This document shows, piece by piece, positions 521 to 2,058 of a stretch of DNA of 64,000 bases. Numbering within the stretch: position 1 is the first letter of the stretch; every line of letters begins with the position of its first letter. The stretch spans positions 1 through 64,000 of the forward strand of contig CAWETU010000005.1 of the NCBI GenBank assembly GCA_963812135.1, given 5' to 3'. The DNA is from Vulcanimicrobiota bacterium (GTDB lineage Bacteria > Vulcanimicrobiota > Vulcanimicrobiia > Eremiobacterales > Eremiobacteraceae). The notes below the pieces were generated by a model. That model was not told where the DNA came from and ran no database searches. It saw only the letters and a program-made list of their open reading frames with translations. A program made the position numbers and the translations under genes.

Positions 521-807
521 CATGTTCTTCCCACCATTCCTGGTGGCATAGACTATATCTTCATCCTGATTGATTTGATCAGGAGTCGGCGTGTGATGGC
601 GGCCGTAGATTTATCGCATCGCTGCGACAGTGACCATCCATCTCAGAGCTCGCGCTCTTCAGTCGTTACGGGGTCAAGGCACGTTCTGTTCGTGCCCGAC
701 TTCCCTCGGTATTACCCCGTCAGCGTCGGTCGATGCTGACGTCGGGTTTCACCGATATAGCCGATGTACATCCTCCAATTGCTCGGAGGAGACGCAGTGT
801 TTTCTCT
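521..807 (-). mobile_element. Group I intron at L2593 (287 nt, IA3-like, no homing endonuclease)
   Basis: Splits AGAACGU|CGUGAGACAG. 5' exon ends in U, which forms a U.G wobble in P1 with CUGCGUCU. Intron ends CAUG (omega-G). Core motifs AUAUCGGUGAAACCC, GGUAAUACCGAG, CCCGUAACGACU, AUAUAGUC. Confidence 0.95.
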
Positions 808-927
808 ACGTTCTGAACCCAGATCGCGTACCGCTTTAATTGGCGAACAGCCAAACCCTTGGGACCTACTACAGCCCCAGGATGCGACGATCCGACATCG
901 AGGTGCCAAACCTCCCCGTCGATGTGG

Positions 928-1219
928 CAATCTACAATCACTTGTAGCTTAGACTATACCTTCATCTCTTTCGAGATGGTGACGTGTTATGGAAGTGATA
1001 GATTTGCGTCTTGCGACGCAGCGCTTCCATCTCTCGCGCGCTGGCGAGAAGTCGTTACAGGGACCGCGCAATCCATCGTCTCGGTCGAATAAATCCGACC
1101 GCTACATTAGGATCAATGATGCGCTGGTCTTCCCTCGGTATTGCCCTTGCCGTGCAAGGGTTCCACCGATATGAGTCACTGATCGCCCACTCGATCGCTC
1201 GAGTGGCGAGCCCAAATTG
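928..1219 (-). mobile_element. Group I intron at L2473 (292 nt, IA3-like, no homing endonuclease)
   Basis: Splits CCAAGAGU|CCACAUCGAC. P1 GAGUC/GGCUC with the U.G pair at the splice site; ends ...AUUG. Core motifs AUAUCGGUGGAACCC, GGCAAUACCGAG, CUGUAACGACU, GUAUAGUC. Exon 808-927 is exactly 120 nt (E. coli 2474-2593). Confidence 0.95.
1082..1105 (-). repeat. GTAG-type REP palindrome (inside L2473 intron)
   Basis: Minus strand GTAGCGGTCGGATTTATTCGACCG. Confidence 0.85.
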
Positions 1220-1745
1220 ACTCTTGGGGGAGATAAGCCTGTTATCCCCGGGGTAGCTTTTATCCGTTAAGCGATGGCTCTTCCATTCAAAACCACCGGA
1301 TCACTTAGCCCGACTTTCGTCCCTGCTCGACATGTACGTCTCGCAGTTAAGCCGACTTCTGCCTATGCACTCTTACGGTTGATTTCCGACCAACCTGAGT
1401 CGACCTTTGGGCGCCTCCGTTACTCTTTGGGAGGCGACCGCCCCAGTCAAACTGCCCGCCTGACCATGTCCTCCAGCCGGATCACGGCTGCTAGTTAGAT
1501 TCCCGAAACCGACAGAGTGGTATCTCAAGGTCGGCTCCATCGCACCCGAAGATGCGACTTCAGCGTCTCCCACCTATCCTGCGCAGTCAATTTCAAAAAT
1601 CAAGATCAGGGTACAGTAAAGCTCCACGGGGTCTTTCCGTCCTGCTGCGGGTAACGGGCATCTTCACCCGTATTGCAACTTCGCCGAGCCCCCCATTGAG
1701 ACAGTGCCCAAGTCGTTACGCCATTCGTGCAGGTCGGAACTTACC

Positions 1746-2058
1746 CATGCTTCGTCCACGGTTTCCCGTGGCATAGACTATACGTTCACCTGAATGCAAC
1801 GGGCTGAGTATCTCGTCGCCGACATCGCTGTCGCTGGCTTGGATAGATCACATCACATGAAACAGGTCCGGCATGTTATGGGATCTTGCGATCCCATCTG
1901 AGGGCTCTCACACCGCTCGAGTCGTTACGGGGATTCGAGTTATCGAATCTTACCCTCGGTATTACCCGCGACGCCGCTTGCGTTAATCGCCGGTAGGGTT
2001 TCCCCGATTTGAGCCGGTTGATTGGGCGGTGTCGCCACCGCTTCGGGCAATGTTACTT
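1746..2058 (-). mobile_element. Group I intron at L1951 (~313 nt, IA3-like, no homing endonuclease; 3' junction ambiguous by 3 nt)
   Basis: P1 UCGGGUAA/UUGCCCGA places the U.G wobble at U1951. Core motifs AAUCGGGGAAACCC, GGUAAUACCGAG, CCCGUAACGACU, GUAUAGUC. P9 and 3' end closely resemble the L2593 intron. Confidence 0.93.

Follow-up and report, generated by a model that had tools for sequence, protein, structure and literature searches.

Introduction

What are the three insertions that interrupt the 23S ribosomal RNA (rRNA) gene of a Vulcanimicrobiota bacterium (assembly GCA_963812135.1) around its peptidyl-transferase centre, and what would the ribosome require of them? The gene lies near the start of contig CAWETU010000005.1, referred to here as C5. 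The window, that is, the whole stretch of DNA analysed, is the first 64,000 nt of this contig, and the genome comprises 2.79 Mb in 6 contigs and is 98.4% complete. An earlier note, made from the letters of the window, had read the insertions as three group I introns without an open reading frame (ORF). Our analysis supports this reading through folds with compensatory changes and through profile matches: the 23S rRNA gene is very probably split into four exons by three IA-type (P7.1/P7.2) group I introns that carry no homing-endonuclease gene.

Layout of the interrupted gene

Sites are numbered after rrlH of Escherichia coli MG1655. The window gene aligns with this reference at 71% identity (2054/2882 aligned columns) and contains three large insertions, which follow E. 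coli U1951 (window 1743-2058), U2473 (928-1219) and U2593 (521-807) and are called L1951, L2473 and L2593 here. The gene and its exons are as follows.

220..4185, minus strand: 23S rRNA gene with introns, 3966 nt, exon sum 3071 nt (Rfam RF02541 (LSU), 2600.8 bits, model 1-2925; E. coli rrlH alignment)
2059..4185, minus strand: exon 1, E. coli 1-1951, last base U1951 at 2059 (rrlH alignment)
1220..1742, minus strand: exon 2, E. coli 1952-2473, 523 nt (rrlH alignment)
808..927, minus strand: exon 3, E. coli 2474-2593, 120 nt, segment of the peptidyl-transferase ring and the A loop (rrlH alignment)
220..520, minus strand: exon 4, E. coli 2594-2904 (rrlH alignment)

Two of the insertion lengths given in the earlier note, 287 and 292 nt, are borne out. 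The third insertion measures 316 nt, and the figure of about 313 nt given for it hides three bases, GGU. The alignment limits of this 316-nt insertion are ambiguous (around E. coli 1947-1955), with the 8-nt GGGUAAGU present at both ends. Exon 3 equals exactly E. coli 2474-2593; therefore, the peptidyl-transferase residues can be assigned by numbering, and the 120-nt piece does hold A2503, U2506, the A loop and U2585, as had been proposed. The gene also shows two smaller expansions compared with E. coli, of 78 nt (3803-3880, after about E. coli 302) and 52 nt (2602-2653, after about E. coli 1415), which are not group I-like by Rfam.

Group I fold of the three inserts

We compared the inserts with intron relatives gathered from 41 related genomes, and from pattern scans that covered 185,579 species genomes and metagenome contigs. 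The introns and their parts, including the internal guide sequence (IGS) of each, are listed below.

521..807, minus strand: L2593 group I intron, 287 nt, terminal G at 521 (RF00028 match; 11-sequence fold)
792-795, minus strand: L2593 IGS, GCGU; P7 strands within 661-669 and 551-557; P7.1/P7.2 between P7 and P3′ (fold)
928..1219, minus strand: L2473 group I intron, 292 nt, terminal G at 928 (40-sequence fold; RF00028 match)
1208-1211, minus strand: L2473 IGS, GCUC; P7 strands within 1050-1058 and 952-958 (fold)
1746..2058, minus strand: L1951 group I intron, 313 nt, up to the homologue of the terminal G in 41 relatives (family fold; nhmmer match)
2043-2048, minus strand: L1951 IGS, GCCCGA; P7 strands within 1920-1928 and 1776-1782 (fold)

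The folds are consistently supported by compensatory changes, counted as pairs with changes on both sides. In the L2473 family (40 sequences), 96.3% of cells are paired, compared with 35-45% for slid partners, and 51 of the 75 pairs show compensatory changes, a count that none of 500 shuffles reached. The corresponding values for the L1951 family (42 sequences) are 98.8%, 34-44% and 29 of 73 pairs, again with 0/500 shuffles as high, and the family of L2593 and L2500 introns (11 sequences) has compensatory changes in 21/48 pairs. The window rows form 73/75 of the model pairs at L2473 and 48/48 at L2593. The folds contain helices P1, P2, P3, P4, P5(a), P6, P7.1, P7.2, P8 and P9, together with a P9.0 adjoining the terminal G. 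The core P3-P9 with its P3/P7 pseudoknot shows compensatory changes in all three families. P7 itself was added to the fold models by hand and is invariant throughout the families; it is thus uninformative on covariation. P7.1 and P7.2, the IA-type feature, covary in all three families. The earlier note had suggested subgroup IA3, a label that is given to Cr.LSU of Chlamydomonas and to Cbu.L1951 of Coxiella.

The splice-site elements are equally regular. The P1 pairings are ACGU/GCGU in L2593, GAGU/GCUC in L2473 and UCGGGU/GCCCGA in L1951, and the U·G pair at the splice-site U is invariant among the 40/40 L2473 and 42/42 L1951 family members. A U-ending 5′ exon combined with a G-ending intron is found in 36 of the 37 introns listed from relatives, the exception being the window copy of L1951; all 54 of the L2473 introns extracted from the 119 public loci listed have T and G at their borders. 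The earlier note had assigned the U-ending exon in a U·G P1 pair and the terminal G to all three inserts. This assignment stands for L2593 and L2473, and L1951 also ends in G, but GGU precedes A1952.

The three inserts are also related to each other in sequence. Profiles for nhmmer were built without the window's own rows and run against the 64-kb window. The L2593/L2500 profile matches all three inserts with E values of 1.4e-73, 4.6e-21 and 2.9e-14 (the last for the L1951 insert), the L2473 profile does so with 4.6e-74, 1.8e-25 and 6.6e-07, and nothing else of note was matched in the 64 kb. The 11-mer AATACCGAGGG occurs three times in the window, once in each insert, compared with 0.00 expected, which confirms the shared core motifs described earlier. 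Given these cross-matches and the common 11-mer, the three inserts constitute one sequence family. The longest stop-to-stop frames are 72, 72 and 58 codons; thus, none of the inserts can encode an endonuclease, in agreement with the original description. Finally, the inserts do not resemble RNase III-type intervening sequences: their sites are in the conserved core of the rRNA, their ends do not pair together and their ribozyme core is conserved.

Several observations weigh against the group I assignment. First, the fold models were predicted on the same alignments that were used for the pair counts, which favours them over the slid controls. Second, no window intron reaches the gathering cut-off of 50 bits of the Rfam model RF00028. 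This model aligns end to end with the L2593 insert (530-817; 35.2 bits, E 7.9e-07) and the L2473 insert (931-1245; 22.7 bits, E 0.0044), and it gives no match at E<=10 for the L1951 insert or for canonical L1951 relatives (loci L150, L151 and L152). Third, the window L1951 copy, with its GGU, forms 66 of the 73 model pairs, the lowest value among 42 sequences (others 69-73, median 73), and none of the other sequences shares its mismatches in P4, P5a, P7.1 and P8. Finally, public RNA runs gave no splicing signal assignable to this organism.

The RF00028 outcome is decisive neither way. The model works on other subtypes, since an L1931 intron of a relative (56.1 bits) and another intron of the window's own genome (69.1 bits) score above 50, and its silence on L1951 reflects a gap in the model and not a property of the window, because well-formed L1951 relatives are missed too. 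As a check on group I identity it is therefore a weak test here, with sub-threshold matches for two inserts and none for the third.

The L2593 and L2473 introns

The borders of the L2593 intron are ...GAACGU / AGAG...ACAUG / CGUGAG, and CAC just upstream of the IGS can pair with exon GUG to form P10. The L2593 and L2500 introns share their core (about 76% identity) and differ in their P1-P2 regions, as is expected after a change of site.

The L2473 intron has the borders ...AAGAGU / CAAU...AUUG / CCACAU. In this case UGG just upstream of the IGS can pair with CCA of the 3′ exon as P10, and exon ligation would give AAGAGUCCACAUCGACGG, equal in length to the E. coli sequence AAGAGUUCAUAUCGACGG. 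The tip of its P6 extension is occupied by a dispersed repeat of the repetitive extragenic palindromic (REP) type.

1082..1108, minus strand: REP-type (GTAG-type) dispersed palindromic repeat AAUGUAGCGGUCGGAUUUAUUCGACCG, 27 nt, tip of the L2473 P6 extension (aligned copies)

The own genome contains 38 further short matches to this repeat (loci L005-L010), and a same-genus genome, G005, has a diverged copy at the same P6 tip. This tip is also the place of a LAGLIDADG_2 gene in a relative: the one long L2473 form that was examined (locus L022, 811 nt) carries the gene in its P6 extension with an E value of 5.5e-34.

Public genomes frequently carry an insertion at L2473, the middle site, to which the earlier note had given no name. 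The site is apparently unnamed in print; no paper naming it was found in the literature searched, a set that most subscription journals fall outside. Outside the phylum, at least 119 stretches matched the L2473 pattern in the species-genome scan, and the titles among the matches listed include Dormibacteraeota, Acidobacteriota, Syntrophus, Desulfosporosinus, Fictibacillus, Omnitrophota, Patescibacteria, Thiomargarita and Bacteroidales. The 54 introns extracted from the 119 loci listed fall into two length classes, with 34 of 259-328 nt and 20 of 654-830 nt. The suggestion of the earlier note that the introns had lost endonuclease genes is plausible for L2473, given these 20 long relatives among 54 and the LAGLIDADG_2 gene in the one examined; it does not extend to the other two introns.

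The deviant L1951 intron

The main irregularity of the locus is the 3′ end of L1951.

1743..1745, minus strand: GGU in RNA, three additional bases that separate the terminal G from A1952 (comparison with the C1 version and relatives)

The 5′ border is ...UCGGGU / AAGUAAC..., and the window version ends as ...GAAGCAUG-GGU-AAGUUCC. The canonical end, ...CAUG / AAGUUCC, is found in a second version of the intron at the end of contig C1 of the same assembly, in 2 relatives and in 104/104 metagenome matches, the pattern for which allowed 0-3 extra bases and fixed 13 bases of P9. The terminal G lies directly before the 3′ exon in L2593, in L2473, in the C1 version of L1951 and in its 41 relatives, whereas GGU intervenes in the window L1951. 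A cut after U1951 combined with the terminal G at 1746 would therefore leave GGU in the helix 71 loop, so that the conserved exon sequence is not restored, and no single pair of cuts would leave U at the end of the exon together with G at the end of the intron.

The C1 version bears directly on the origin of these bases. The end of contig C1 (locus L004) matches window 220-2923 with 25 differing positions, all inside the L1951 intron; 13 are substitutions and the rest are insertions or deletions, with no difference in the exons or in the L2473 and L2593 introns. The remaining rRNA genes of the operon are listed here.

4696..6222, minus strand: 16S rRNA gene, same operon, insertion-free (RF00177, 1573.3 bits, model 1-1533)
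1..101, minus strand: 5S rRNA gene, 3′ end cut by the contig start (RF00001, 68.7 bits)

The 16S rRNA gene and the 5′ part of the 23S rRNA gene occur once in the assembly, the C1 match continues up to the final base of C1, and the contig of the window begins inside the 5S rRNA gene. What looks like a second rrn copy may thus be a contig overlap: the window start and the C1 end, overlapping by ~2.9 kb, may be one operon assembled twice from two haplotypes. Alternatively, they may be two operons, one of them incomplete. In the relatives, a single such place is seen in each genome. The presence of the introns in two rrn copies is accordingly not claimed here, since the C1 end carries the same three introns and may be the same locus; the assembly holds no intron-free 23S rRNA gene.

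The chances seem to us about even that the window L1951 sequence is an artefact of the assembly or consensus, or that a minor haplotype was captured at the contig end, and that the real intron is the canonical C1 version. The single 16S and 5′ 23S sequences fit this explanation, as the C1 and C5 ends can be one locus overlapping by about 2.9 kb. So do the confinement of all 25 differing positions to the L1951 intron, the lack of the extra bases in the 104 metagenome matches, and the state of the intron itself: at 10 columns that are invariant elsewhere, the window version shows private states, and it has at least 5 broken core pairs, compared with 0 private states and 72/73 pairs in the C1 version. 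However, errors are not expected to cluster in 316 nt amid about 2.4 kb of identical flanks, the 13 substitutions and the two states shared with G005 speak for real variation, and a diverged allele could have escaped the metagenome pattern through its 13 fixed P9 bases.

Tentatively, the window L1951 may instead be genuine, as an allele or as a second gene copy undergoing decay or mis-splicing, either by carrying GGU into the helix 71 loop or by splicing poorly; it would then represent a natural splice variant. This explanation takes the sequence as assembled. The identity of the window version is lower than that of the C1 version to both G005 (87.7% and 89.8%, respectively) and the relative G009 (77.9% and 81.7%), as expected for relaxed constraint, and the Coxiella 23S introns provide a precedent for unusual but tolerated rRNA introns. 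On the other hand, lethality would be expected from a defective intron beside the catalytic centre if there is a single operon, and the variant is absent from the 104 metagenome matches. In a DNA run (X1) the depth is ~5 over the L2593 and L2473 introns, and there is none over the L1951 intron.

A further feature of L1951 is a GAAC in J8/7 (alignment columns 327-330, window about 1784-1787) that is complementary to GUUC of the 3′ exon (columns 374-377, window about 1736-1739) in 42/42 L1951 introns. Both sides are invariant, so the pairing cannot be assessed by covariation.

Proposed splicing

By analogy with characterized group I introns, we infer that the three introns are spliced and that a working 23S rRNA is assembled from four exons. 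Each intron would fold within the precursor rRNA, with its IGS pairing to the end of the upstream exon (P1) and placing the splice-site U in the U·G wobble. An external guanosine bound in P7 would then attack after this U. The terminal G, placed by P9.0 and P10, would replace the guanosine in P7, and the exons would be ligated. A working peptidyl-transferase centre would need the removal of all three introns, because the 98.4%-complete assembly holds no intron-free 23S rRNA gene. G005 likewise has one 23S place, which carries all three introns, so that neither organism would have ribosomes without removal of the introns.

Two introns lie 120 nt apart, which would raise the risk of exon skipping; the distinct guides, GCUC and GCGU, should keep the two reactions apart. 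Exon skipping is known from the twin introns of Coxiella, as stated by Hicks et al. (2011) in a title that PMC4990558 cites.

We also considered public RNA data. In three runs of soil metatranscriptomes, taken from two studies, most intron bins had no contig depth, and the runs contain contigs that join exactly across 287, 292 and 316 nt and are not assignable to this organism. These joins were rejected as evidence for splicing. The sides that are joined are shorter than 30 nt and universally conserved, and at L2473 the most common form of the join departs from the window at 2 positions. In addition, the DNA run X1 shows intron-free junction ends too, and a same-genus genome that lacks the L1951 and L2473 introns (G006) has a 100% identical exon 2.

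We consider it very improbable that the inserts are not spliced, whether because they are excised with the exons left unligated, as with intervening sequences processed by RNase III, or because the mature rRNA retains them. Retention has an apparent parallel in the L1931 intron of Simkania, which is reportedly kept in the mature rRNA. Public RNA runs without assignable direct evidence of splicing are compatible with such a fate, and bacterial 23S genes do carry non-intron insertions, as the 78- and 52-nt expansions of this gene show. However, selection has maintained the ribozyme fold in its entirety, with dozens of compensatory changes, as well as the P1 U·G pair and the terminal G, none of which is needed for excision by a host nuclease. 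In addition, the sites are located in universally conserved single strands and helices of domains IV and V and not in the variable helices where intervening sequences lie. Splicing of group I introns thus remains the preferred explanation.

Distribution and lineages of the introns

To place the introns in their lineage, we compared the sets carried by related bacteria. The closest named records to the L2473 intron and its flanks show about 83% identity and are titled Candidatus Eremiobacteraeota, Vulcanimicrobiota or Baltobacteraceae. The loci of 19 relatives contain 31 introns at five sites (11 at L1931, 2 at L1951, 8 at L2473, 5 at L2500 and 5 at L2593); 15 loci have 1-3 introns and 4 have none, counts that are lower bounds since some loci are cut. 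Three genomes of the window's own genus compare with the window as follows.

G005: same three introns as the window; exon identity to the window 99-100%
G001: introns at L1931, L2500 and L2593; exon identity to the window 98-100%
G006: introns at L1931 and L2500; exon identity to the window 100% over 571 nt

The introns had previously been regarded as fixed. This is unsupported, because same-genus genomes carry other intron sets; the introns appear, from the sequences compared, to come and go among five sites within the host class.

In a sample of 401 genomes of the phylum searched by BLAST (thresholds 1e-10 or 1e-8), matches were found in 3 genomes for L1951, 27 for L2593/L2500 and 64 for L2473; these tallies are to be read as "found in" and not as frequencies, because many of the genomes are without assembled rRNA. 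By family, the L2473 matches are in 7/29 genomes of one family (f1), in 56/297 of a second (f2) and in 0/75 of the other 19 families. The tallies include unpublished genomes, namely G013 and G016 in the related-genome set and G254 in the 401-genome sample, and no other claim uses these.

A tree of 30 introns groups them by site and not by genome, with support of 96/94 for L2593, 100/100 for L1951 and 96/75 for L2500 as the sister of L2593; one long-branch sequence from the candidate phyla radiation (CPR) is misplaced in it. Since the grouping follows site, the three window introns are old, site-specific lineages that relatives share. That one intron had recently been copied to three sites in this genome was considered and rejected, as the introns cluster by site with long branches.

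The mode of spread is likewise inferred; reverse splicing, suggested in the earlier note, may or may not have taken part. Mobility probably stems from relatives at L2473 and L1931 that bear endonuclease genes: the three long L1931-region introns that were scanned (loci L019, L020 and L029) give LAGLIDADG_1 matches. We regard as unlikely a more extended account in which the host class harbours a fast-turnover population of IA-type introns, most of them endonuclease-free, moving between five or more 23S sites even within one genus, the L2500/L2593 pair, with a common core and distinct guide sequences, records site switching by reverse splicing or trans-acting endonucleases, and the window L1951 is a real 3′-splice-site variant in decay.

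Two other sets of insertions were observed. The relatives' long insertions at or near L1931 (loci L014, L019, L020 and L029) measure 629-709 nt, with one of about 1039 nt; the latter (locus L020, 431-1485, in G008) spans E. coli 1917-1931 and may be two elements. In addition, the window's own genome contains a fourth group I intron on contig C1, at 2070182-2070379 (locus L153, 283-480), with an RF00028 score of 69.1 bits. It lies just upstream of an apparent tRNA 3′ half with CAU at the anticodon position, and ARAGORN calls no tRNA there.

Comparison with known rRNA introns

The published systems are compared here as they are presented in the portions of the cited papers available to us. Haugen et al. 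(2007, PMC1995217) describe bacterial 23S group I introns at L1917, L1931, L1951 and L2593, most of which carry LAGLIDADG genes. Among them, the L2593 introns of Synechococcus sp. C9, S. lividus C1 and Thermosynechococcus elongatus are 744-748 nt long and contain a single-motif LAGLIDADG gene (PMC1995217). The window L2593 intron shares with the L2593 introns of that paper the site, a short P5 and P2, and an extension of about 65 nt with P7.1/P7.2 between P7 and P3′. It differs from the cyanobacterial introns in its length of 287 nt, in the lack of an ORF and in its host, a soil bacterium of another phylum. Cr.LSU of Chlamydomonas, with I-CreI, is a chloroplast group I intron at L2593.

At L1951, the intron of Coxiella burnetii (Cbu.L1951) is 720 nt long and encodes a LAGLIDADG protein of 157 aa (table in PMC1995217), and the two 23S introns of Coxiella are described as self-splicing, spliced out of the 23S rRNA precursor and stable (PMC4990558). 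The window L1951 intron resembles Cbu.L1951 in lying at the same site after U1951 and in being one of several introns in a bacterial 23S rRNA gene. In contrast to Cbu.L1951, it is ORF-less, measures 313-316 nt and has the aberrant 3′ junction in its window version.

Multiple introns in one gene also have parallels. The 23S rRNA gene of Synechococcus sp. C9 has three (L1917, L1931 and L2593), all with endonuclease genes (PMC1995217), and that of Candidatus Thiomargarita nelsonii has three unclassified introns (PMC4853749); a Thiomargarita record (locus L099) matched our L2473 pattern. The window gene is like both in having three introns in one bacterial 23S rRNA, and unlike that of Synechococcus sp. 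C9 its introns are without endonuclease genes. The 23S rRNA genes of CPR/Patescibacteria contain many introns, with ORF-less and LAGLIDADG forms at the same sites that are highly similar outside the ORF (Tsurumaki et al. 2024, PMC11270868). The clustering of multiple introns in the 3′ half of the gene is common to the CPR genes of that study and the window, whereas the host here is a 2.8-Mb non-CPR bacterium. The sites named in the parts of PMC11270868 consulted are 1917, 1931, 1952, 2593, 2604 and 2657, and L2473 may or may not be among its 23IS9-11.

Implications

The introns of the window are thus a known kind of element in a phylum where they do not seem to have been described before; no description of group I introns in Eremiobacterota/Vulcanimicrobiota was found in the literature searched, which leaves most subscription journals outside. 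RF00028 misses the L1951 family completely; therefore, annotation pipelines will report over-long or broken 23S rRNA genes in these genomes. If the introns splice as proposed, ribosome production in a free-living soil bacterium would depend on three ribozyme reactions, two of which flank a 120-nt piece containing most of the peptidyl-transferase ring. With five sites, forms with and without endonuclease genes, and intron sets that differ within a genus, this lineage provides a natural series for the gain of rRNA introns, the loss of their endonuclease genes and their disappearance.

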